Sequence record: OR924452
Strand: one strand, 5' to 3'
DNA: 64,000 bases
Origin: Escherichia phage 241
The notes beneath the pieces were generated by a model, which was not told the origin of the DNA, ran no database searches, and was given only the letters and a program-made list of their open reading frames with translations. Both the position numbers and the translations under genes were made by a program. Position 1 is the stretch's first letter. Every line of letters starts with the position of its first letter. This document shows positions 1,287 through 44,967 of this stretch, piece after piece.

Positions 1287-2201
1287 CTACACCTTACGCA
1301 TTAGCCCCAGAAGGGACACGGATGAGGTCTTTGGTTCTTCCTTGGCGACGGCCTTGTTTTTAGTTTTGGATGCCTTCTGCGGCTTCTCAGGCACTCTGTG
1401 AGCCAAAGGATCCTGACCGCCGACTTCACGCGTCATCGGATTGGTTTCGCAATAGCCGTAGAAATCTTTCGACATCAGATTGTTAGCGCGGCAAACTGTG
1501 CCAAGCTGATGATAGATAGCATTACCCACCACCCACAACGGGGCGTCGAACGGCAACATAGCCAATTCGCTATCATTCCCAGTCTTGAATTCTTGGGTGT
1601 TCGTAACCGTTTGGTGGTACAAAACGTCTTGCCCACTGTAATCATCCACGGCAACATTCCAGCCCAGCGCCAGCATTTCAGATTTCGACTTCTCGAACTC
1701 CTTGGAGTAAGATTCGTTGCGTGACCAGCCGGAATCCCCCGCTTCTTTACCAGAGCGTCCACGGATGCGGGCATCGTACTGATAGCGATCAGGATATGCA
1801 AAGTACAGCAGCGCCAAAGAATCAATCGGATAGTTCTTGAACATCCATTCAGGACGCCACTTGTCCGACAGCATCAGGGGTTCGCCCTCACACACCAGGG
1901 TATATCCCTGAGCCAGCCAACCCTTGACGAGGTCGCGAGCAATATCCCCAGAGCCTGTGGCAGCATGAATGGCGTCCATAGAGGTCCAAGACGCCAGGCC
2001 GGATTTATTGGACACTGTGTATTGGCCGACGAAGATTAACTTCAGCTCTTCAAATTTCAGGCCGAAGGGGCGCGTCTTATCCCCAACAGTGTACGACAAT
2101 TCAGTCGGCTTCAGCTTAGTGCGGAGCCACTCGATGAACTGTACGACACGAGTGCCTTTACCCGTGCCGCTGGTTCCTTTGATTACAATGATCTTTGCCA
2201 T
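1287..2201 (-). CDS. P-loop kinase; candidate nucleotide or DNA 5-hydroxymethyl-dU kinase (function inferred)
   Basis: N-terminal Walker A IVIKGTSGTGKGT; 304 aa; same-strand cluster with PLP enzyme and polymerase. Confidence 0.7.
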   Translation of the reverse strand: MAKIIVIKGTSGTGKGTRVVQFIEWLRTKLKPTELSYTVGDKTRPFGLKFEELKLIFVGQYTVSNKSGLASWTSMDAIHAATGSGDIARDLVKGWLAQGYTLVCEGEPLMLSDKWRPEWMFKNYPIDSLALLYFAYPDRYQYDARIRGRSGKEAGDSGWSRNESYSKEFEKSKSEMLALGWNVAVDDYSGQDVLYHQTVTNTQEFKTGNDSELAMLPFDAPLWVVGNAIYHQLGTVCRANNLMSKDFYGYCETNPMTREVGGQDPLAHRVPEKPQKASKTKNKAVAKEEPKTSSVSLLGLMRKV

Positions 2202-2506
2202 TATGCAGCATCCTCAATGCGCCAACTCACTCCACCCAACCAAGGTGCCCAAAACACGGCAACTTGCGGATGACCATTCTCAACAAACTTCACTTTATAC
2301 TGGTCATCAAAGTTATAGAAAATTTCGTCGTCATCAGGTGCCATACCGTTTTCGATCAGAACTCGTTTTAATTCCAACGCTGCGCCAACGGAAGTTGGTG
2401 GATTCTGATTACGGATGAAGTTGTTTACATGGATAATGATACCATCCATATCACTGTCACCGGAACGCTTGTCAGGGCTTTCTACAACTTTATTTTGTTC
2501 TTGCAC
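2201..2506 (-). CDS. Hypothetical protein
   Basis: 101-aa ORF, start overlaps the stop of the upstream gene (translational coupling). Confidence 0.45.
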   Translation of the reverse strand: MQEQNKVVESPDKRSGDSDMDGIIIHVNNFIRNQNPPTSVGAALELKRVLIENGMAPDDDEIFYNFDDQYKVKFVENGHPQVAVFWAPWLGGVSWRIEDAA

Positions 2507-2515
2507 GATGTGCTC

Positions 2516-3358
2516 CTATCGGACATATTGATAATGAGAAACCAGGCGATTCACCACTTCATCGAGGTTACGATTCAAGAAGTCAAAGTGGTTTTGGCCT
2601 TCTACATGCTTAATATAAAGCATATCCTCGCAATTCGAAAGATCCAGTTTTTCATAATTGCCCTGAGGGACGAAGATGACGAAGATGTTATTCAGGGCAC
2701 ACGGCTCAACATACTTCGGATTGTCGTCGATCAGGACATCGCCAGCAAGCAGATGCTTTTCATCCGTGCTCACGAACCCATTAATCAACGATTCAAAGTG
2801 ATGGTATATGAACTGACGCTTGCTGCGTTCGTGTTCCGGTTCGCATTTTGTAACTGCCACCATTTCCACTTGCTCAAACTTCTGAAGGAGAGCGGCCTTT
2901 AAATTCGTAAGGAATTCAACAGCCCCTGGCAGTGGTGACATTCTGGAATACAGATCAGGCATACGCCACCAATCCATCGGATCACGTCCTGTTGGCGAAT
3001 CCATCCACTGACCAGCAACGAATACACGGCGCGTTAACCAGGCCGGATGCGCGCGTTCACGCATGAGGATCGCCAGATCACCAGCGTGTGACATATAACA
3101 CTCTTTGGTGATTGGTTGAAATTCAGATGGGTAGTCGTGACATCCCATATTTTCCGCAGCGGCTTTAGAATTAGAAATATTGAACCATTCAACCCACGGC
3201 GATAGGGAATCAACCAGAGTCAAATCCACATCCACCAGAACGCGATATAACCCGCCAATTTTAGAACATGCGTCATACACACCAACGTGATTATTCATCA
3301 GATTTCTCCACATTGTCATAACCCGTTGCGGTGCATTGTTCTTCGGTGCAATCGGCAT
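2516..3358 (-). CDS. Hypothetical protein with HAD-like DxDxT motif (possible phosphatase/nucleotidase); start codon uncertain
   Basis: 280-aa ORF; motif VDVDLTLVD near the N-terminus resembles HAD motif I; alternative starts at about 3319 or 3313. Confidence 0.5.
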   Translation of the reverse strand: MPIAPKNNAPQRVMTMWRNLMNNHVGVYDACSKIGGLYRVLVDVDLTLVDSLSPWVEWFNISNSKAAAENMGCHDYPSEFQPITKECYMSHAGDLAILMRERAHPAWLTRRVFVAGQWMDSPTGRDPMDWWRMPDLYSRMSPLPGAVEFLTNLKAALLQKFEQVEMVAVTKCEPEHERSKRQFIYHHFESLINGFVSTDEKHLLAGDVLIDDNPKYVEPCALNNIFVIFVPQGNYEKLDLSNCEDMLYIKHVEGQNHFDFLNRNLDEVVNRLVSHYQYVR

Positions 3359-3635
3359 ACAGAACCACAGAAGATTCCTTCACGTAAGTGGTGCAGTGAT
3401 AGGTTTCATCTTCCTGGATGGAATCATCATAATTGCAAACAGTTTGCAACGGACCAGGAGTCGTGTTGTCCAAAGCTGCATGTGCCTTGATGGTGTCTTC
3501 CATCTTATTCACCGCTTGCTGATTGGTGAACGTCGGCGCATCGAGGTCAACAGTAGACGCAACGTCCAGAAGGGTAGAGCATGCAGTGGTAGAGAAAGCC
3601 AGAGCACACACCAGAAGAATCTTATTGAGTTTCAT
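3291..3635 (-). CDS. Secreted Cys-rich protein with signal peptide
   Basis: Internal start MKLNKILLVCALAFSTTACS is a signal-peptide-like N-terminus; six Cys in the mature part. Confidence 0.5.
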   Translation of the reverse strand: MKLNKILLVCALAFSTTACSTLLDVASTVDLDAPTFTNQQAVNKMEDTIKAHAALDNTTPGPLQTVCNYDDSIQEDETYHCTTYVKESSVVLYADCTEEQCTATGYDNVEKSDE

Positions 3636-3654
3636 AACAATACCTGTTGTCAAA

Positions 3655-3692
3655 GGGATAACAGGGGGAATTATATCCCCCTTTGTTTTATT
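3655..3692 (-). terminator. Hairpin with T-tract downstream of the polymerase gene
   Basis: GGGGGATATAATTCCCCC stem-loop followed by a T-rich tract when read on the minus strand. Confidence 0.4.
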
Positions 3693-3695
3693 GAA

Positions 3696-6692
3696 TCAAC
3701 CTTTCTTGCCCATCATGGACAACAGATTAACTCGACGTTTGTGAGACCAACCAACCACGTCTAGAATAGACTGAATCGGCTCTATGAAGGTCTTTTCAAA
3801 CGTGGTGTGGTAATCTACCCACTTATCCAGCCCCAACTCCGGAGGGAGGAAGTCAGGGAAGGCTATGCGGTCGTTCCCCACAGGGTTCCCAGGTTTCAGG
3901 TTAATGATTTTAACCTTATCGCCAGATTCTATCGGCGGGAGACCGAGGTCTTCATGCTTGTCTATCAGCTTGTTGTACATAATACAAGCCTTGGCAGCAA
4001 AGTGTGTGCCACTGATATAATTTCCGTTGCCGTCTAACCACTTCTCAATATCACTAACGCCAGAGGCTTGAGCAATATCATCCACGGTTAATTCCATATA
4101 TTCCTTCTTATAACCCGCGATCAATTCCTGAACTTCAGCCTCCGTCCCCAGAAGAACTTTCTCATAGCATTTAACCAGACGCTCACGACACCATTCCGGC
4201 GTTGTAGATTTACGCGCTTCCAGACCTTTGAATTTTATCTTTGGCTTCTCATACTTGATGCCTTCGCTATCGTATACCGCCATGCAATACATCTTCTTGG
4301 CTCGCCATACAGCAGACGATGCGATGACCTCACGTTCCCAGACCATGCGCTGCTCAAACCCGTTCATGGTATTACATAACAACTGCGCCCATTCGCTGGT
4401 TTTTGGCTGGTAATTCTCTTTGATCCATTGGTCAATGTTATCAACGAGTTTGTGATGGTCCTTTTCTTCAGGCCACAATTGCTTGACCAGGCGTTCAATG
4501 CAAATGTAGTTGGAGTCAGTATCACCCGCGATAACAAAATCCTGACCAGTAGTGCCGCAAAGTTTGTTCAGATAATCATCGGTGTGGCGTTTGTTCCATT
4601 TGTTGATCAGCTGGCCGGAAGTGGTGATTGCTTCAGCGATGTTGATGTTGAAGTATTCTTTAAACCAGACGTTGGAGATTGCGCCATAACCTGCGTTCAT
4701 CAAGATCTTCAGACCTTGTTGTAACGTGTCTTGAGCAACCCCCAGATCTTCCCACTTGTGCATGACTTCAGTCAGGTGATCAAGATCGATGTGCTTGTGT
4801 TCTTCATACCATTCAGGATCGTAGAAACGAGACTTCATGGCGGACTCAAGGTGGAAATCACCTTTAGACATTTCCTTACACCAACCAGCCCATTGCTCAT
4901 ACTTCAGGCCAGTTGCTTTCTCTCCTTTACGGTCAGCGTATATGCCTCGCATAATTTCGGAAAGGAAGGACATCTTCTCATTACTGAAGAACTGAACGTT
5001 CGGGGTAAACGAAACGTTATATCGGCGTAGTGTTTCAAAATGGAATTCGCCCAGCGCGACCAATTCATCAACAACTTGTATGCGTTCATCAATAGCACGC
5101 TGCAACTTGTCGTGAAGATTTTTGAGATGACGACGTTTATTCATCGGCGTTGTCATATCATTCATCGCTTTGGTCAATTCCTCACACATAGCCTCAATAA
5201 TATCACGGCGTGTGTGCTTATCAGAAACGATAGTCTCTGGACCAAGGTTGTATTGCTGTATGATGTGGGGATACAGGGAGTTTAAGTCCTCAGAGAAGAC
5301 CCAGAAATATATCCCTGGTGCAACCTCCATGACATATGCGCCTTCAAAATCTGTTGGTCCATCATAGACGCGCTGGATTTTCGGGACAATCCCCTTCTCA
5401 TAAAGACGATAATAGCACATCGCCAGCCACGGTGCTACAGTGCCGAGACCGTCTTCATAGTTGGATTTAGTGCGATAAGCCAATACAAACATCAGCTGTA
5501 TCAAACGCAGTTTTTGTTCTAAGCGCCACACCAGCTTGACGTCTTTGATACCATATCGCGTATGCTTGCAATAATCATTGAAATAAAGGTCATACAATGA
5601 TTTGCTTTCACTATAATCCAACTTCTTCTCACCGAGTTCACAATAAGCGATCCAGTCCAGTGAGTATTTTTCGCGGGTGGTGTAAGTGTGTTTCTTGTAC
5701 ACTTGCATGTAGTCCATCATTGGACAACCCACAAACTGATAAGACGTGACGTCGCCTTTACGGTCTTTGATGAAACGTTTCTTCAGTTTACCCCAAGGAC
5801 TGAGACGCTGGGCTTCGGATTCACCAAGAACCTGCGTAATTCGTTCAACCAAATAGGGACTATCGAACGTTTCAATGTTCCACCCCGTCCAACCGTCAAA
5901 TTGACGCTGCGACCAGTAGTTAAGGAATGAACGCAACAGATCCTGCTCGGTGACGAACTCCATATACTCAACCTGAAGCCCACCGATTTCAGGATCGTTC
6001 TCATCATACCTGAACTTCGCGCGATCCTTGGAACACGGCATGCCCCAGACATAGAATTTATTGGTATTCATATCTTGGAGCTGTATCAGCGTAATAGGGA
6101 ACGCCGCATTCATGTTCTGTGTGATTTTACCGTTACTGTCAATTATAGGGAATTGGTCAGTCACGTTGTTGGAAATAAAGGAACCAGGGAAATGCTCCCG
6201 AACGAAATCATGGTTGGCCAGTACTTGCTTATGGAAACGACGAACCCGCGCCTCGCTGCCTTTAAACGTGTGAGATTCAATCGTTGCGTGCGGGAATGGA
6301 CCTTTAGTCATTTCTCCGTCACGCCAACCAGCCGAGAACACTTCGATATCCACGTTGGCGATGTGGATATTTGAATAATCAGGTGTGATCATCCCAGGAA
6401 AACTATGGGCGATGAATTGATATGCATAATCCGTTTGTCCATACACCGCAGCCCCTTCGACCTCCTTGTACTCCTCAAGATAGTTGTCAGCGTCGCGCAT
6501 TGATGCAAACTTTTTAGACACCAACGGTTCGTTGAGGAGGCCAATCTTTTCAACTTTGGAATAATCAGCTGTGGGTAAATACAAGGTGGGTTCGAATTTC
6601 TTACGCAACATGCGGCGATTGCCGTTGTCGTCTGCGATACGAATCAGAAGGTCGTTACCCTGTCGGGCAACGTTCGTATAGAAAACAGTCAT
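3696..6692 (-). CDS. gp43: Family B DNA polymerase (T4 gp43-like)
   Basis: Exo I motif NVDIEVF, motif A LNSLYPHII, motif C VIAGDTDSNYI; start reset to the ATG at 6692 (MTVFYTNV) which has a GGAGA RBS; 999 aa. Confidence 0.93.
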   Translation of the reverse strand: MTVFYTNVARQGNDLLIRIADDNGNRRMLRKKFEPTLYLPTADYSKVEKIGLLNEPLVSKKFASMRDADNYLEEYKEVEGAAVYGQTDYAYQFIAHSFPGMITPDYSNIHIANVDIEVFSAGWRDGEMTKGPFPHATIESHTFKGSEARVRRFHKQVLANHDFVREHFPGSFISNNVTDQFPIIDSNGKITQNMNAAFPITLIQLQDMNTNKFYVWGMPCSKDRAKFRYDENDPEIGGLQVEYMEFVTEQDLLRSFLNYWSQRQFDGWTGWNIETFDSPYLVERITQVLGESEAQRLSPWGKLKKRFIKDRKGDVTSYQFVGCPMMDYMQVYKKHTYTTREKYSLDWIAYCELGEKKLDYSESKSLYDLYFNDYCKHTRYGIKDVKLVWRLEQKLRLIQLMFVLAYRTKSNYEDGLGTVAPWLAMCYYRLYEKGIVPKIQRVYDGPTDFEGAYVMEVAPGIYFWVFSEDLNSLYPHIIQQYNLGPETIVSDKHTRRDIIEAMCEELTKAMNDMTTPMNKRRHLKNLHDKLQRAIDERIQVVDELVALGEFHFETLRRYNVSFTPNVQFFSNEKMSFLSEIMRGIYADRKGEKATGLKYEQWAGWCKEMSKGDFHLESAMKSRFYDPEWYEEHKHIDLDHLTEVMHKWEDLGVAQDTLQQGLKILMNAGYGAISNVWFKEYFNINIAEAITTSGQLINKWNKRHTDDYLNKLCGTTGQDFVIAGDTDSNYICIERLVKQLWPEEKDHHKLVDNIDQWIKENYQPKTSEWAQLLCNTMNGFEQRMVWEREVIASSAVWRAKKMYCMAVYDSEGIKYEKPKIKFKGLEARKSTTPEWCRERLVKCYEKVLLGTEAEVQELIAGYKKEYMELTVDDIAQASGVSDIEKWLDGNGNYISGTHFAAKACIMYNKLIDKHEDLGLPPIESGDKVKIINLKPGNPVGNDRIAFPDFLPPELGLDKWVDYHTTFEKTFIEPIQSILDVVGWSHKRRVNLLSMMGKKG

Positions 6693-39446: not shown

Positions 39447-40145
39447 ATGGCCAGACCATTTGAAAAATATTTCTACCATGAATCGTTGTTGAAATACATT
39501 CATGTCTTCAACGCTATCATGTCAGATTTAAAAGTCAAAACCGAACGTGGCTTGATGGAAATCCCGCTGCATATGGCTATTGGCCGTCGCAATGACCTCA
39601 ACAGGAACGTGCCAGCCAATATGCTGCCATTTGCGACTATGTCCTTCGGTCAATTTGAAATTAATAAACAAGTGACCAAGTCGTATCATAATCAGATATC
39701 GACTGCAACTGCGCGGTCCAAACAACGAATTCCGATCATTATAGATTTTGAATATAACATCAGAACGAAGAAACTGGTCGAAATGCTACAGGTGTTGGAA
39801 CAAATTTATTCTGTGTTCACTCCTTCTATTGATTGTCAGATAAAAGACAACGATACGTTATCTCAAGATCAAAACGTGAAGATTATGTTGACGTCCCATA
39901 CCATTTCCGATAACTGGGAAGGGGATGCCGCTGAATCACCCCATATAGATTGCACCTTTAATTTTCAATTACATGGGCACATTTATGGCGAAGATTATTG
40001 GGTCGATGACGGCTCTGGCGGTGGTGATCCGAACGTTATCAAAGAGATAATTATTGAAATGTCTAATGATTTGAACACGCCATGGTCGGAACTGCCTGAG
40101 TGGTTCCGAGTTGACAAAGATGGCATACATCATCCGGAGGATTGA
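39447..40145 (+). CDS. gp15: Tail sheath stabiliser / tail completion protein (T4 gp15-like, by synteny)
   Basis: 232-aa ORF coupled to its neighbours in T4 order. Confidence 0.6.
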   Translation: MARPFEKYFYHESLLKYIHVFNAIMSDLKVKTERGLMEIPLHMAIGRRNDLNRNVPANMLPFATMSFGQFEINKQVTKSYHNQISTATARSKQRIPIIIDFEYNIRTKKLVEMLQVLEQIYSVFTPSIDCQIKDNDTLSQDQNVKIMLTSHTISDNWEGDAAESPHIDCTFNFQLHGHIYGEDYWVDDGSGGGDPNVIKEIIIEMSNDLNTPWSELPEWFRVDKDGIHHPED

Positions 40146-40828
40146 TCATGAGCAATATGTCAGAAAGGTTACTTGCGACGCTAGACGCGGTGACTGCCAG
40201 AGATGAAGTTGGTAAGGAGGCGATGGAAGCCGTCTCTCCACGTCCAGGTATTGACTTCGATGAAAAAACGGGCGAGTGGTTTGGTGAACGCCCAGAAGGT
40301 TATCAGCCGATTCCAGAACCTCCATCATTGGAAGATATCGCGTCCAAAGAATCCAAGGTTCCGGAGTTTGCGGATACTGATGCCACAACAGATTACAAGC
40401 GAATACGCGATACGACATACGCCATGCAGGAAGCCACGATGTTCATGATGGGGCAAGCTGCTAAATTAGCTGCATCTACCGAAGCCCCAAGAGCGTTTTC
40501 TGTGTTTCGTGAATTGGGCGAACTCATGCGCGGCCTGAACAAAGACCTGATGGAAAACCAAAAAACCATCAAAGCTGTGACAGGGGATAAAGAACCGCCG
40601 ACTGATGACACAACCGTGGATGTTACCACTTCACCCGACGGGACCACAACAGTATCTGTTGGGAAGAAAGCGAGATCTTCGCGCGATTTATTGAAAACGA
40701 TCGAAGATGCACGCCGCCGCGCTGAAGAACGCGCTCAGGCAAAAGCCACCCAACAAACCGAAGATGAAATTATCGACGGTGAAACGGTTGACGTGAAGGA
40801 AAAAGACGATGGCGTATCAGAAGCGTGA
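40142..40828 (+). CDS. gp16: Terminase small subunit (T4 gp16-like)
   Basis: Position directly before the large terminase; central segment similar to T4 gp16. Confidence 0.65.
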   Translation: MIMSNMSERLLATLDAVTARDEVGKEAMEAVSPRPGIDFDEKTGEWFGERPEGYQPIPEPPSLEDIASKESKVPEFADTDATTDYKRIRDTTYAMQEATMFMMGQAAKLAASTEAPRAFSVFRELGELMRGLNKDLMENQKTIKAVTGDKEPPTDDTTVDVTTSPDGTTTVSVGKKARSSRDLLKTIEDARRRAEERAQAKATQQTEDEIIDGETVDVKEKDDGVSEA

Positions 40829-43019
40829 TATAGAATATGCTCCGATAAAAACGGGGTTTAAAATCGACGACGTGAAATTGCGTATGGACCAGACGTTCAT
40901 GCGCAAGCCTTCTGTGCGCGCTCCACGAGTCGAGTTGATGCTAACAGATGAACAAGAAGACGAATTTGTTGAATGTTCAATGGACGCACATTACTTCGCT
41001 GCCAATTACTACAAGATAACGACAATCGATAAAGGCTTTATCCTTTTCGATATGCATGATTATCAGAAACAATTATTTCACGATTTTCAAGATTATCGTT
41101 TCAATGCCGTTGTCCAGGCGCGTCAGTCCGGTAAATGCGTCCGTGGTGATACTCTTGTTTATGTCTATGATACAGTCAGTCAACAAGAGTTGCATCTCAC
41201 CATAGAAGAGCTTCACAAGCGCTTCGAAGGACCGAACCATGCTGTGCCACTGAATACCATTGGCAACCACAATAAGTTTGTAGACAGCCGTTTCGGGAAA
41301 CGATATTTTGTTGAGTCCGACACTGGCTGGGTTCCGGTTATTGCCGCTCATAAAACGAAAGAATACGCTGAATACGTGGTCAGGACTGAAACCGGACGCA
41401 CAATTCATGTCGCAGATGAGCACATGTTCTTCAATGAATATGGGCGCGAAGTATTTGCTAAAGACATGGAGGCCGGAGATGCCATAATGACCCAGGAGGG
41501 AATAGAATTCATCTCTGAGATCTGGGAGACTGGTGAGTACCACCACATGTATGACTTGCAAGTCAAGTCCAGCGATCAACGTTATTACACGAATGGGTTC
41601 CTCAGCCATAATACCACGGTCGTGGCTGCGTTTCTTCTTTGGTATGCGATGTTCCACTCAGACAAAGAAATCGCGGTACTGGCAAACAAAGAGAAACAAG
41701 CGATTGAAATTCTTGACCGTATCAGGAAGGCGTATCAGGACCTCCCATTCTTCCTTCAGCAGGGTTGTGAGAAGTTTGGTTCTACACTGATAGAGTTTGA
41801 GAACGGCTCTAAGATATATGCTTATGCAACGTCTTCGGACTCTATTCGTGGTCGTTCTGTATCTCTCTTGTACGTGGACGAAGTCGCGTTCATCGAAAAT
41901 GACTTTGAATTTTGGGAATCAACATTCCCAGCGATCGCATCTGCTGATACTTCACGTTGTATTCTTACCAGTACTCCGAAAGGCCAGCGAGGGTTGTTCT
42001 ATGATATCGTCACCAAAGCAGACCCGCGCCATCCACAATACAACGATTTCCATCTTACCGAAGTCCCTTGGTACAAGGTTCCGGCGTACACCAAAGACCC
42101 TGATTGGGAAACCAAACAACGCGCTCGTCTGGGGGATGCCCGTTTTGACCAGGAATTTGGAATCAAGTTCCGTGGTTCTGTAGGTTCATTGATACCAGCC
42201 AAATGCTTGGATAAAATGACATCCAAGTTATATCGAGAGCCTAATGAGTTCACCAAAATTTACAAGGAATATGACCCGCAACGCATCTACTTCGGGATTG
42301 CAGATACGGGGAAAGGTGTTGAAGGAGATTATTCGGTTCTGACAATTCTGGATATAACGGAATACCCGCATGTCATAGCGGCCAAGTACAGGAACAATAC
42401 AATACCTCCGATGATGTATGCATACACGATAGCTGATATGTGTACTGAATACGGGGAGTGTCCAGTCCTTGTAGAAACCAACAACGACGTTGGTGGACAG
42501 GTTATTACAATCTTGTATCAAGAAATTGAGTATCCAGAGATTATATTCACGTCGACGGATAACAAAGGGACAGGGAAACGGATTGGTGGTCGTAAACCAG
42601 AGCCAGGCATTAACACCAACAGGAAAGTGCGATCTATTGGTTGTGCTAACCTGAAAGCGCTTATTGAGAAAGAAATGTTGGTGATCGAAGACCAAGACAC
42701 GATAGATGAACTCAGCACATTCGTGTTCCGTGGTGCGCGTTATGAAGCAGATGATGGATGTCACGACGACTGCGTTATGCCGTTGGTATTATATTCTTGG
42801 GCAGTTAAACAAGAATGGTTCAGTGATCTGACTTCTACCAGTATTTCTCAAGACATGAGAAATAGAATGTCTTCGACTGAGTCACAACAAGTATTCCCAT
42901 TTGGTGGTTTAGTCGTGGGAGACACTCCATCTGGAACTGAGCATCTCCCTGGGTTCGGTGGTGTTCAAGTCTTCGACGAACGTTCAGGGATGACAATGGA
43001 CGAGTGGTTTAAGAATTGA
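40809..43019 (+). CDS. gp17: Terminase large subunit (T4 gp17-like), interrupted by a mini-intein in the Walker A P-loop
   Basis: Extein sequence ARQSGK then TTVVAAFLLWYA matches T4 gp17 SRQLGKTTVVAIFLAHF; 736 aa including a 159-aa insertion. Confidence 0.9.
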   Translation: MAYQKRDIEYAPIKTGFKIDDVKLRMDQTFMRKPSVRAPRVELMLTDEQEDEFVECSMDAHYFAANYYKITTIDKGFILFDMHDYQKQLFHDFQDYRFNAVVQARQSGKCVRGDTLVYVYDTVSQQELHLTIEELHKRFEGPNHAVPLNTIGNHNKFVDSRFGKRYFVESDTGWVPVIAAHKTKEYAEYVVRTETGRTIHVADEHMFFNEYGREVFAKDMEAGDAIMTQEGIEFISEIWETGEYHHMYDLQVKSSDQRYYTNGFLSHNTTVVAAFLLWYAMFHSDKEIAVLANKEKQAIEILDRIRKAYQDLPFFLQQGCEKFGSTLIEFENGSKIYAYATSSDSIRGRSVSLLYVDEVAFIENDFEFWESTFPAIASADTSRCILTSTPKGQRGLFYDIVTKADPRHPQYNDFHLTEVPWYKVPAYTKDPDWETKQRARLGDARFDQEFGIKFRGSVGSLIPAKCLDKMTSKLYREPNEFTKIYKEYDPQRIYFGIADTGKGVEGDYSVLTILDITEYPHVIAAKYRNNTIPPMMYAYTIADMCTEYGECPVLVETNNDVGGQVITILYQEIEYPEIIFTSTDNKGTGKRIGGRKPEPGINTNRKVRSIGCANLKALIEKEMLVIEDQDTIDELSTFVFRGARYEADDGCHDDCVMPLVLYSWAVKQEWFSDLTSTSISQDMRNRMSSTESQQVFPFGGLVVGDTPSGTEHLPGFGGVQVFDERSGMTMDEWFKN
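41136..41612 (+). mobile_element. Mini-intein (159 aa, Hint domain only) in the terminase ATPase P-loop
   Basis: Begins with Cys (CVRGDTLVYV), ends with His-Asn, next extein residue Thr; inserted between the Lys and Thr of the GK[T] Walker A motif; too short for a homing endonuclease domain. Confidence 0.8.
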
Positions 43020-43030: not shown

Positions 43031-43071
43031 CTTTCAAATTGAGCGAAACTCTACCGAGAAGGAATAACATT

Positions 43072-44967
43072 ATGGCAACTCAAAGCTTCAGCGTTGCGCC
43101 GTCCGTACAGTGGACTGAGCGTGATGCCACGCTTCAGACTTCTCCGTCCGTGGTTGTTCAGGGCGCGACAGTCGGCAAATTTCAATGGGGTGAAGTCGAA
43201 CTCCCAGTGCTGGTGACTGGTGGTGAGACGGGTTTGGTGAAGAAATTCTTCAAACCTAATGACAGCACTGCGACAGATTTCCTTGTGATTGCAGACTTTT
43301 TGTCTTACAGCTCTATGGCATGGGTGACTCGTGTTGTTGGTCCTCTGGCCAAGAACTCTGTCACCAAAGGCCAGACAGCCATCACGATCAAAAACAAGCT
43401 GGATTTTGAAACAGCAAGTCCGTCAGCGTCTATCACTTGGGCTGGTCGTTATCCAGGATCTCTGGGAAATGACATCGCCATCAATGTTTGTGACTCCGCT
43501 GGATTTCCGACCTGGGAATTCCGTAACAACTTTGCGTACGCACCTCAATCTGGTGAATTCCATGTTGTGGTTGTAGACAAAGTTGGGCGCATTACTGACT
43601 CTGCAGGCGCAGTCGGTCAGGTTGATCGTATATCTGTTTCTGGCACGGCAACTGCAGCTGGCACCATCAGTGTGGCAGGTGAAGATATTGCATATCTGGA
43701 TACTGATACTCCGGCCACTTTGGCGACCAAAATCGGCGCGGCGCTGACGGCGCTGACAGATGTTTATTCTTCTGTCGTTGTTAAGTCTAACACTGTCATC
43801 GTGACCCATAAAGCTATTGGTCCCCAGACAGTTACTGCTATTGTTCCAGATGATAAGGGGCTGACTGCAACCGCCGTGATTACCACTGTTGGCGCATCTG
43901 GTTCTATTATCGAAAAATACGAACTCATGCAGAACACACAGGGTTCCAAAAAGTCCGATGGCGCGAATGCGTACTTCAAAGATGTCATCAATGATACATC
44001 AAATTGGGTGTACACCTTCGCTACCGCTCTGGCCGCAGGTGTTGTTGAATTAGAAGGCGGCGTAGACGACTACAATATCAACCGTGTCGCGGCTATCCAA
44101 GTTCTGAACAACGCCGAAGCATATGATGCGAAGCCAGTATTTGCATACTGTGAAGAGTTGATTGAACAACAGGCATTAATCGACTTGTCTACCGAGCGAA
44201 AAGACACCGTTTCCTTCGTGTCGCCTTTGCGTGATACTGTGGTCGGCAACCGTGGCCGTGAGATGGACGATGTGGTCGCTTGGCGTGAAAGTCTGGTGCG
44301 CGACTCCTCCTATTTCTTCATGGACGACAACTGGGCATACGTGTACGATAAATACAACGATAAGATGCGCTGGATCCCTGCTTGCGGCGGTACAGCGGGT
44401 GTTTGGGCACGTAGTATTGAAATCGCGGGTATCTACAAATCTCCTGCGTTCCACAACCGTGGCAAATACAACAACTACAATCGAATGGCGTGGTCTGCGT
44501 CTTCCGATGAACGTGCCGTGTTGTACCGCAACCAGATTAACAGCATCGTGACCTTCTCCAATGAAGGTATCGTGTTGTATGGTGACAAAACTGGTCTGAC
44601 TCGTCCGTCTGCTTTCGATCGTATCAATGTTCGCGGTCTGTTTATTATGGCAGAACAGAACATCGCTGCAATCGCCAAATATTACCTTGGTGAGAACAAT
44701 GATGCGTTCACTCGCAGTCTGTTCAGCAACGCTGTTCGTCCTTATATTCGCCAGCTGGCAAATATGGGTGCGATCTACGATGGTAAAGTCAAGTGTGACG
44801 AAGATAACAACACTGCTGACGTCATCGCGGCAAATCAGATGGTCGCTGGTATCTGGCTGAAACCGGAATACAGCATCAATTGGGTGTATCTTGACTTTGC
44901 TGCAGTTCGTCCGGATATGGAGTTCTCTGAAATTGAATCCGGCGGCGGCATCGTTGCTGCTTCTTAA
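43072..44967 (+). CDS. gp18: Tail sheath protein (T4 gp18-like)
   Basis: GKFQWGEVELPV matches the T4 gp18 N-terminus; AAGGAA RBS; start at the ATG at 43072. Confidence 0.85.
   Translation: MATQSFSVAPSVQWTERDATLQTSPSVVVQGATVGKFQWGEVELPVLVTGGETGLVKKFFKPNDSTATDFLVIADFLSYSSMAWVTRVVGPLAKNSVTKGQTAITIKNKLDFETASPSASITWAGRYPGSLGNDIAINVCDSAGFPTWEFRNNFAYAPQSGEFHVVVVDKVGRITDSAGAVGQVDRISVSGTATAAGTISVAGEDIAYLDTDTPATLATKIGAALTALTDVYSSVVVKSNTVIVTHKAIGPQTVTAIVPDDKGLTATAVITTVGASGSIIEKYELMQNTQGSKKSDGANAYFKDVINDTSNWVYTFATALAAGVVELEGGVDDYNINRVAAIQVLNNAEAYDAKPVFAYCEELIEQQALIDLSTERKDTVSFVSPLRDTVVGNRGREMDDVVAWRESLVRDSSYFFMDDNWAYVYDKYNDKMRWIPACGGTAGVWARSIEIAGIYKSPAFHNRGKYNNYNRMAWSASSDERAVLYRNQINSIVTFSNEGIVLYGDKTGLTRPSAFDRINVRGLFIMAEQNIAAIAKYYLGENNDAFTRSLFSNAVRPYIRQLANMGAIYDGKVKCDEDNNTADVIAANQMVAGIWLKPEYSINWVYLDFAAVRPDMEFSEIESGGGIVAAS

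Follow-up and report, generated by a model that had tools for sequence, protein, structure and literature searches.

Insertion between the Lys and the Thr of the P-loop of terminases is a textbook intein site. Mycobacteriophage TerL1-a inteins occupy this K/T position, termed a 'classic' intein insertion site, with Thr as the +1 nucleophile and a packaging ATPase as the host (Kelley et al. 2016, mBio, PMC5050341). Mycobacteriophage TerL inteins at sites TerL1-b, -c and -e, TerL6-f and Pham3880-g spliced efficiently (five of the five tested), TerL1-a itself standing outside the splicing assays (PMC5050341).

Genome announcements have described the large terminase of close relatives of the phage analysed here as intein-interrupted, unlike that of T4, on the strength of Hint and splice-site signatures in InterPro (PMC3853055, PMC3868846, PMC6486243). 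These papers date from 2013 (Luna et al., Tatsch et al., Genome Announc.; phages Marshall and Maynard, KF669653/KF669654) and 2019. The record of Marshall (KF669653) reads 'intein-containing terminase large subunit; intein from Cys110 to Asn268', and the intein is annotated likewise in the records of Mooltan and Klebsiella phage Magnus. Many records of the same gene, including those of Vi01, CBA120 and Det7, give only 'terminase large subunit' and leave the intein unmentioned.

The window analysed here is the whole stretch of 64,000 nucleotides taken from Escherichia phage 241 (OR924452). The phage is a Vi01-like Kuttervirus (Ackermannviridae). Its terL DNA was 99.7% identical to that of Salmonella phages Marshall, Maynard and Mooltan and 99.3% identical to that of Vi01 (all genus Kuttervirus, Ackermannviridae), and its intein DNA was 100% identical to that of Marshall. 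The intein mat_peptide of KF669653 corresponds exactly to the interval of the insert in the window, and the TerL inteins of Marshall, Maynard and Mooltan are the same element (Cys110-Asn268), with no substantive difference. The intein of Magnus is orthologous (84.3% aa identity) and annotated at the same position. The intein was already known, with the same boundaries in GenBank and in publications since 2013; its detection from the raw sequence is a correct rediscovery and carries little weight as a discovery.

The host of the mycobacteriophage TerL1-a inteins is Terminase_1, whereas the host in the window is a T4-type Terminase_6, and the likeness is one of site and host function. The lone TerL6 intein of the mycobacteriophage study (site f) lies in the C-motif, whereas that of the window lies in the P-loop (PMC5050341). 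Homologous inteins occur in the T4-like TerL of Campylobacter phages vB_CcoM-IBB_35 and CP21 and of Vibrio phage VP-1 (33-38% identical across some 70% of the length), and the VP-1 site matches that of the window (SRQSGK/C...SHN/TT). The terL of IBB_35 is interrupted a second time, by an intron that carries an HNH endonuclease (PMC3322345). In that of VP-1 the ATPase domain is followed in frame by a GIY-YIG domain, and the nuclease domain has a separate CDS, whereas terL of the window has the intein only. Pfam labels on VP-1-like TerLs hinted at a GIY-YIG endonuclease within the intein; this was rejected because the domain lies at residues ~500-590, beyond both the intein and the ATPase domain, and terL of the window lacks it.

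Host gene and position of the insert

The terL product is a T4 gp17-type (Terminase_6) large terminase, with an N-terminal ATPase carrying the Walker A motif and a C-terminal RNase H-like nuclease. Pfam PF03237 (Terminase_6N) matched TerL residues 269-460 (E-value in Table 1), and PF17289 (Terminase_6C) matched weakly (20.1 bits, just below the GA of 22.6). The order of genes around terL is that of T4 (gp15-gp16-gp17-gp18).

Table 1. Positions of terL, its intein and neighbouring genes in the window
Feature	Position	Strand	Basis or remark
Small terminase ORF	40142..40828		Neighbour of terL
terL precursor CDS (intein-containing T4 gp17-type large terminase), 736 aa plus stop	40809..43019	+	Pfam Terminase_6N E 3e-16; T4 gp17 structures; start and stop as in Marshall_50, KF669653
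N-extein, residues 1-109; its last residues, ARQSGK (41118-41135), open the Walker A motif	40809..41135	+	Alignment to T4 gp17 85-166 (...SRQLGK166)
Predicted class 1 mini-intein, 159 aa, Cys1-Asn159 (precursor Cys110-Asn268)	41136..41612	+	Profiles, conservation, predicted fold; same as 'intein' mat_peptide of KF669653 and MH688040
Block A (CVRGDTLVYVYDT); Cys1 as N-terminal nucleophile	41136..41174	+	C1, V2 invariant; D5, T6 conserved in 90% or more of the 13 homologues
Block B (GRTIHVADEHMFF); conserved His96; Ala93 in place of the TxxH Thr (ADxH)	41394..41432	+	A93, D94, H96, F99 invariant; aligns to gp41-1 'CSEEHLF'
Block F (MYDLQVKSSDQRYYTNG) with Asp140	41547..41597	+	M138, D140, L141 invariant; aligns to block F of VidaL and gp41-1
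Block G (FLSHN); penultimate His158, terminal Asn159	41598..41612	+	L156, S157, H158, N159 invariant
Thr269, +1 splice nucleophile and Walker A Thr	41613-41615	+	T269, T270 invariant in 24 TerLs
C-extein, residues 269-736: remaining ATPase domain and nuclease domain	41613..43016	+	Alignment to T4 gp17 from Thr167 onward
Tail sheath ORF	43039..44967		Neighbour of terL

The insert is 477 nt long and in frame. Its boundary codons are TGC (Cys110; 41136-41138) and CAT AAT (His267-Asn268; 41607-41612), followed by ACC (Thr269). It splits Walker A between Lys and Thr (ARQSGK/C...SHN/TTVV), and the sequence runs from YRFNAVVQARQSGK (to residue 109) through CVRGDTLVYV...YYTNGFLSHN (to residue 268) to TTVVAAFLLWY.

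The Walker A motif of T4 gp17 is SRQLGKT (residues 161-167) and is reported to be essential for packaging (Rao and Mitchell). T4 gp17 (PDB 3ezk, 3cpe) aligned to TerL in two blocks (E ~1e-68 to 2e-68). The first paired TerL 28-109 with gp17 85-166 and ended ...SRQLGK at the Walker A Lys166, and the second paired TerL 268/269-675 with gp17 166/167-563 and started (K)TTVVAIFL. TerL residues 110-268 had no counterpart in gp17 in this alignment, Lys166 and Thr167 being contiguous, and because the alignment breaks there the insertion was placed exactly between the Walker A Lys and Thr. The preliminary description, made from the sequence, had proposed an insertion of 159 aa at this very point, starting with Cys and ending with His-Asn, and both its coordinates and its residues were confirmed in the ORF and in the gp17 alignment; chance does not account for the pattern.

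The exteins of intein-less terminases were contiguous across the site (QSGK/TT). Five intein-less metagenomic TerLs (P0015-P0019; 74-85% extein identity) had no residues inserted (length 0), their site reading QARQSGK/TTVVAAFLLWYA, and the Vibrio-phage TerL group (P0028-P0030) likewise had an insert length of 0 (QSGK/TT). Inserts of 159-181 aa were found at the same point in 12 further TerLs, all of them starting with CV and ending with LSHN. The metagenomic contig that encodes P0015 (L005) has the same gp15-gp16-gp17-gp18 order as the window, and its empty-site DNA (GGTAAG/ACAACT) reads ...CAGTCAGGTAAG/ACAACTGTCGTG..., the matching site in the window reading ...CAGTCCGGTAAA/(477 nt)/ACCACGGTCGTG.... 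The diversity of homologues with and without the insert came from the full precursor as the query; the isolated intein of 159 aa gave 2 matches in a set of 5.8 billion proteins, the word index apparently having gathered few candidates.

An antisense ORF of 194 aa (41073..41657, minus strand) lies almost exactly over the intein. In CBA120 and Magnus this frame is interrupted, at points that differ between the two, and shuffling terL with synonymous codons yielded an antisense open stretch of at least 194 codons in 41% of cases; the ORF was put down to chance. Base composition was uninformative as to a foreign origin of the intein (GC of 46.5% in the intein, 44.7% in the extein and 45.3% in the window).

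Intein blocks, profiles and predicted fold

Conservation was scored over 13 homologous inserts of 159-181 aa, with identity down to 33%. The class 1 residues C1, H96, D140, H158 and N159 were invariant in 13 of 13 inserts, and Thr+1 was invariant in 24 of 24 TerLs. The sole deviation from the canonical intein motifs was the Ala for Thr in block B (ADxH vs TxxH), which occurs family-wide; His96 itself aligned with its block B counterpart in gp41-1.

Pfam Intein_splicing (PF14890) matched the isolated insert with an E-value of 3.9e-8 (33.7 bits vs a GA of 35.8). TIGR01445 (intein_Nterm) reached 26.8 bits on the isolated insert and 22.1 bits on the whole protein (cutoff 24.5), and TIGR01443 (intein_Cterm) reached 11.9-13.4 bits, below its cutoff of 15.6. 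A family profile built from the 13 inserts matched the solved inteins VidaL (6e-11), gp41-1 (2e-9) and NrdJ-1 and lined up their blocks B, F and G. Blocks A, B, F and G are all present, block B in the ADxH form, and the Hint search on the whole favoured the intein that had been proposed.

An AlphaFold2 model made from the insert alignment (pLDDT 93.6, pTM 0.86) had a single, mostly-beta domain, and the insert is predicted to have the Hint fold. The best 50 Foldseek matches in the PDB were all inteins or intein-like BIL (BIL2) domains, headed by VidaL (6vgv; E 1e-10, TMq 0.76) and including PhoCDC21-1, Mtu RecA, Npu and Ssp DnaB, gp41-1 and Pho RadA. The modelled fold is shared (TMq 0.66-0.76) with VidaL, gp41-1 (6qaz), NrdJ-1 (8ubs) and Npu and Ssp DnaB (4o1r, 1mi8). 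These solved inteins are of similar size (127-172 aa) and free of endonuclease, but are only 13-24% identical to the intein of the window and sit in other hosts at other sites. VidaL, gp41-1 (cyanophage-like) and NrdJ-1 are naturally split, whereas the intein of the window is contiguous. Compared with the solved inteins, the model has about 20 extra residues in the N-terminal lobe, as two short helices (residues 23-43).

No endonuclease domain (LAGLIDADG, HNH or other) was matched by a profile in the insert, and only 43 residues lie between His96 and Asp140. The insert is classed as a mini-intein because of its 159 aa, the absence of an endonuclease profile match and the single-domain model, which bears out the earlier view that it had no room for a LAGLIDADG or HNH domain.

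Distribution and recombination

The intein was found at no less than 60% aa identity in ~278 records of the phage collection, and the extein at the same identity in 283 records. The phages that carry the intein infect Salmonella, Escherichia, Klebsiella, Dickeya, Serratia, Shigella, Enterobacter and Erwinia. The intein is all but fixed among cultured enterobacterial Ackermannviridae. Isolates without it in the phage collection came no nearer than Vibrio phages (56% identity), and intein-less alleles of up to 85% identity occur in metagenome assemblies.

In Klebsiella phage TTM-TASP117 the intein matched in two pieces over 680 nt. This record is a 'partial genome' with fragmented CDSs, and the split match was taken as a draft-assembly problem.

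Presence in nearly all cultured enterobacterial Ackermannviridae would also suit a Hint-derived, lineage-specific insertion domain that does not splice and is kept in the mature terminase. The insert, having no endonuclease, looks fixed and not actively mobile, and its PF14890 and TIGR01443 scores below the curated thresholds fit such a domain as well. Retention is nonetheless very unlikely: it would leave 159 folded residues between a P-loop Lys and Thr that are contiguous in T4 gp17, and the residues with a role in splicing only (C1, H96, D140, H158 and N159) are invariant despite an overall identity of 33%. A contiguous homologous segment in related terminases had been named beforehand as the mark of a lineage-specific domain; some relatives do carry the segment, but in close relatives it is missing with its edges exactly at Cys1 and Asn159, which is the behaviour of an intein and not of a lineage-specific domain.

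Between the window and CBA120 (both Kuttervirus), identity was 98.7-100% (aa) and 88-89% (nt) in the exteins and 78.6% (aa) and 72% (nt) in the intein. Between CBA120 and Escherichia phage AV101 (Aglimvirinae), identity was 86-94% (aa) and 76-85% (nt; 76% in the C-extein) in the exteins and 96% (aa) and 93.5% (nt) in the intein. In a sliding window, CBA120 and AV101 shared a tract of 95-100% identity from about nucleotide 240 to 690 of the gene, the intein being nucleotides 328-804. The histories of intein and exteins disagree, and intein alleles have passed between Ackermannviridae subfamilies by recombination. The ends of the tract differ from those of the intein, which points to ordinary recombination during co-infection rather than to precise endonuclease-driven homing, in agreement with the missing endonuclease.

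Predicted splicing and the packaging ATPase

The insert most probably encodes a functional class 1 mini-intein in the P-loop of TerL that is spliced out of the precursor (probability about 0.93). The class 1 assignment of the preliminary description was upheld by Cys1, the block F Asp and the invariance of the catalytic residues in the 13 homologues. The precursor has a calculated mass of 84.7 kDa, and its splicing would yield ligated exteins of 66.2 kDa and an intein of 18.6 kDa; the ~84 and ~66 kDa that had been anticipated for precursor and spliced product agree with these values.

By analogy with intein biochemistry, the precursor would be translated as a single chain, and Cys1 would undergo an N-S acyl shift aided by the block B His96. 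The Thr+1 hydroxyl would then attack the thioester (transesterification), and Asn159 would cyclise with the help of His158 and free the intein. An O-N shift would leave a normal Lys-Thr peptide bond, so that the P-loop would be restored in an active terminase of 66.2 kDa carrying the junction NAVVQARQSGKTTVVAAF (QARQSGK-TTVVAAF). Because a folded domain of 159 residues splits the P-loop before splicing, ATP binding, ATPase activity and DNA packaging should require splicing, as judged from T4 gp17 biochemistry. The insert is carried by ~280 viable cultured isolates, and a working Walker A must therefore be regenerated in them, from which we infer splicing. No experimental work on this particular intein was found in the searchable literature.

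The dN/dS between the window and Magnus was ~0.04 for the intein and 0.03 for the exteins, which indicates that purifying selection on the intein has been as strong as on the exteins. The dS was saturated for several intein pairs, for which identities and dN only were used.

Thr is a weaker +1 nucleophile than Cys. Together with the change from Thr to Ala in block B (ADxH) across the whole family, this would be compatible with a decayed intein that splices poorly or cleaves at its N- or C-terminus without ligation, the terminase then working as two associated fragments. Decay of this kind is highly improbable: neither the +1 nucleophile nor the terminal Asn varies, and the low intein dN/dS, like that of the exteins, speaks for purifying selection across the entire domain. 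Cleavage would, moreover, leave the P-loop with unjoined Lys carboxylate and Thr amine groups at a point where its fold depends on a peptide bond.

Class 3 inteins lack the nucleophile at position 1 and use a block F Cys (WCT triplet). A class 2 or class 3 intein with a non-canonical mechanism is extremely unlikely here, even with class 3 represented among mycobacteriophage TerL inteins (PMC5050341), and both classes were excluded because position 1 is an invariant Cys and position 4 of block F is an invariant Asp, not Cys.

Implications

The class 1 mini-intein reading bears on annotation and phylogeny. Most of the ~280 Ackermannviridae records name the gene 'terminase large subunit' only. 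The intein should be stripped before trees are built from terL, a standard phylogenetic marker, because intein and exteins have had different histories. Being compact and naturally contiguous, with Cys1 and Thr+1, and coming from a mesophilic enterobacterial phage, this mini-intein is a candidate tool for protein engineering.

It is conceivable, if rather unlikely, that the retained endonuclease-free mini-intein gates the packaging ATPase post-translationally (by timing, temperature or another condition), and that divergent alleles influence the outcome of co-infection or recombination at terL. This would fit the near-universal presence of the intein in cultured enterobacterial Ackermannviridae and the swapping of alleles between subfamilies. 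The intein sequence had no sign of a specific splicing trigger, and its single Cys makes a disulfide trap impossible.

The exchange of alleles across subfamilies is one small addition beyond the known intein. Combined with the presence/absence polymorphism of the intein, it would make these phages a clean natural system for the persistence and spread of endonuclease-free inteins.

Divergence of the intein and its exteins

Between phage 241 and CBA120, the terL exteins had 98.7-100% amino acid identity, but the inteins only 78.6% (pairwise comparison; loci in Table). Between CBA120 and AV101 (Aglimvirinae) the intein had 93.5% nucleotide identity and the exteins 76-85%, with a tract of 95-100% identity that started about 90 nt 5' of the intein and stopped about three quarters into it. 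By sequence comparison, terL intein and exteins have discordant histories.

Table. Coordinates of loci compared and features examined.
Feature	Sequence	Coordinates	Strand	Remarks
Locus compared	Window	41050-41500
Locus compared	CBA120 (L003)	2174-4384
Locus compared	AV101 (L006)	1501-3711
Intein-less terL allele	Metagenomic contig (L005)	1660-3390		Logan ERR11172903; proteins P0015-P0019
VP-1 terL region	Vibrio phage VP-1 (L007)	2485-5827		MH363700; proteins P0084, P0053, P0080, P0111
Intein match in two pieces	Klebsiella phage TTM-TASP117 (L008)	1501-2180		PV588649, partial genome
Small terminase gene	Window	40142-40828
Overlap with terL start	Window	40809-40828		20 nt
Antisense ORF, 194 aa	Window	41073-41657	-	Extent nearly that of the intein
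tRNA genes	Window	13069-14667	-	Ile(GAT), Tyr(GTA), Met(CAT)

Other terL alleles

Alleles of terL that lacked the intein and whose exteins were 74-85% identical to those of the window came from metagenome assemblies only (homologues P0015-P0019), whereas all cultured relatives at comparable distances carried the intein, including the more distant P0012-P0014 (75-82%). In Vapseptimavirus-like Vibrio phages, terL was interrupted twice, first by a homologous P-loop intein and then, C-terminal to the ATPase domain, by an in-frame GIY-YIG endonuclease domain; the nuclease domain of the terminase was encoded by its own downstream CDS, labelled 'terminase like family protein'. The homologue P0111 had the GIY-YIG fusion without the intein.

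The intein match in TTM-TASP117 extended over 680 nt, compared with 477 expected, and its terL was annotated as fragmented hypothetical proteins. An artefact of draft assembly or a frameshift would be the probable cause of the split match; less probably, it reflects an insertion inside the intein.

Surroundings of terL

The small terminase gene ran 20 nt into the start of terL, as also annotated in Salmonella phage Marshall. No free-standing homing endonuclease gene was found beside terL in the window; in phage selz (OL964738), by contrast, a NUMOD3 protein adjoins terL according to the record. The antisense ORF over the intein was rejected as a gene and considered a chance ORF, being unconserved in CBA120 and Magnus and matched by 41% of synonymous-codon shuffles of terL. 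Elsewhere in the window, 3 tRNA genes lay within 1.6 kb.

Evolutionary interpretation

The occurrence of intein-less alleles at distances where cultured relatives all carry the intein suggests its precise loss or repeated gain. The discordant identities, together with the 95-100% tract, imply that intein alleles would have been exchanged by recombination between Ackermannviridae subfamilies.
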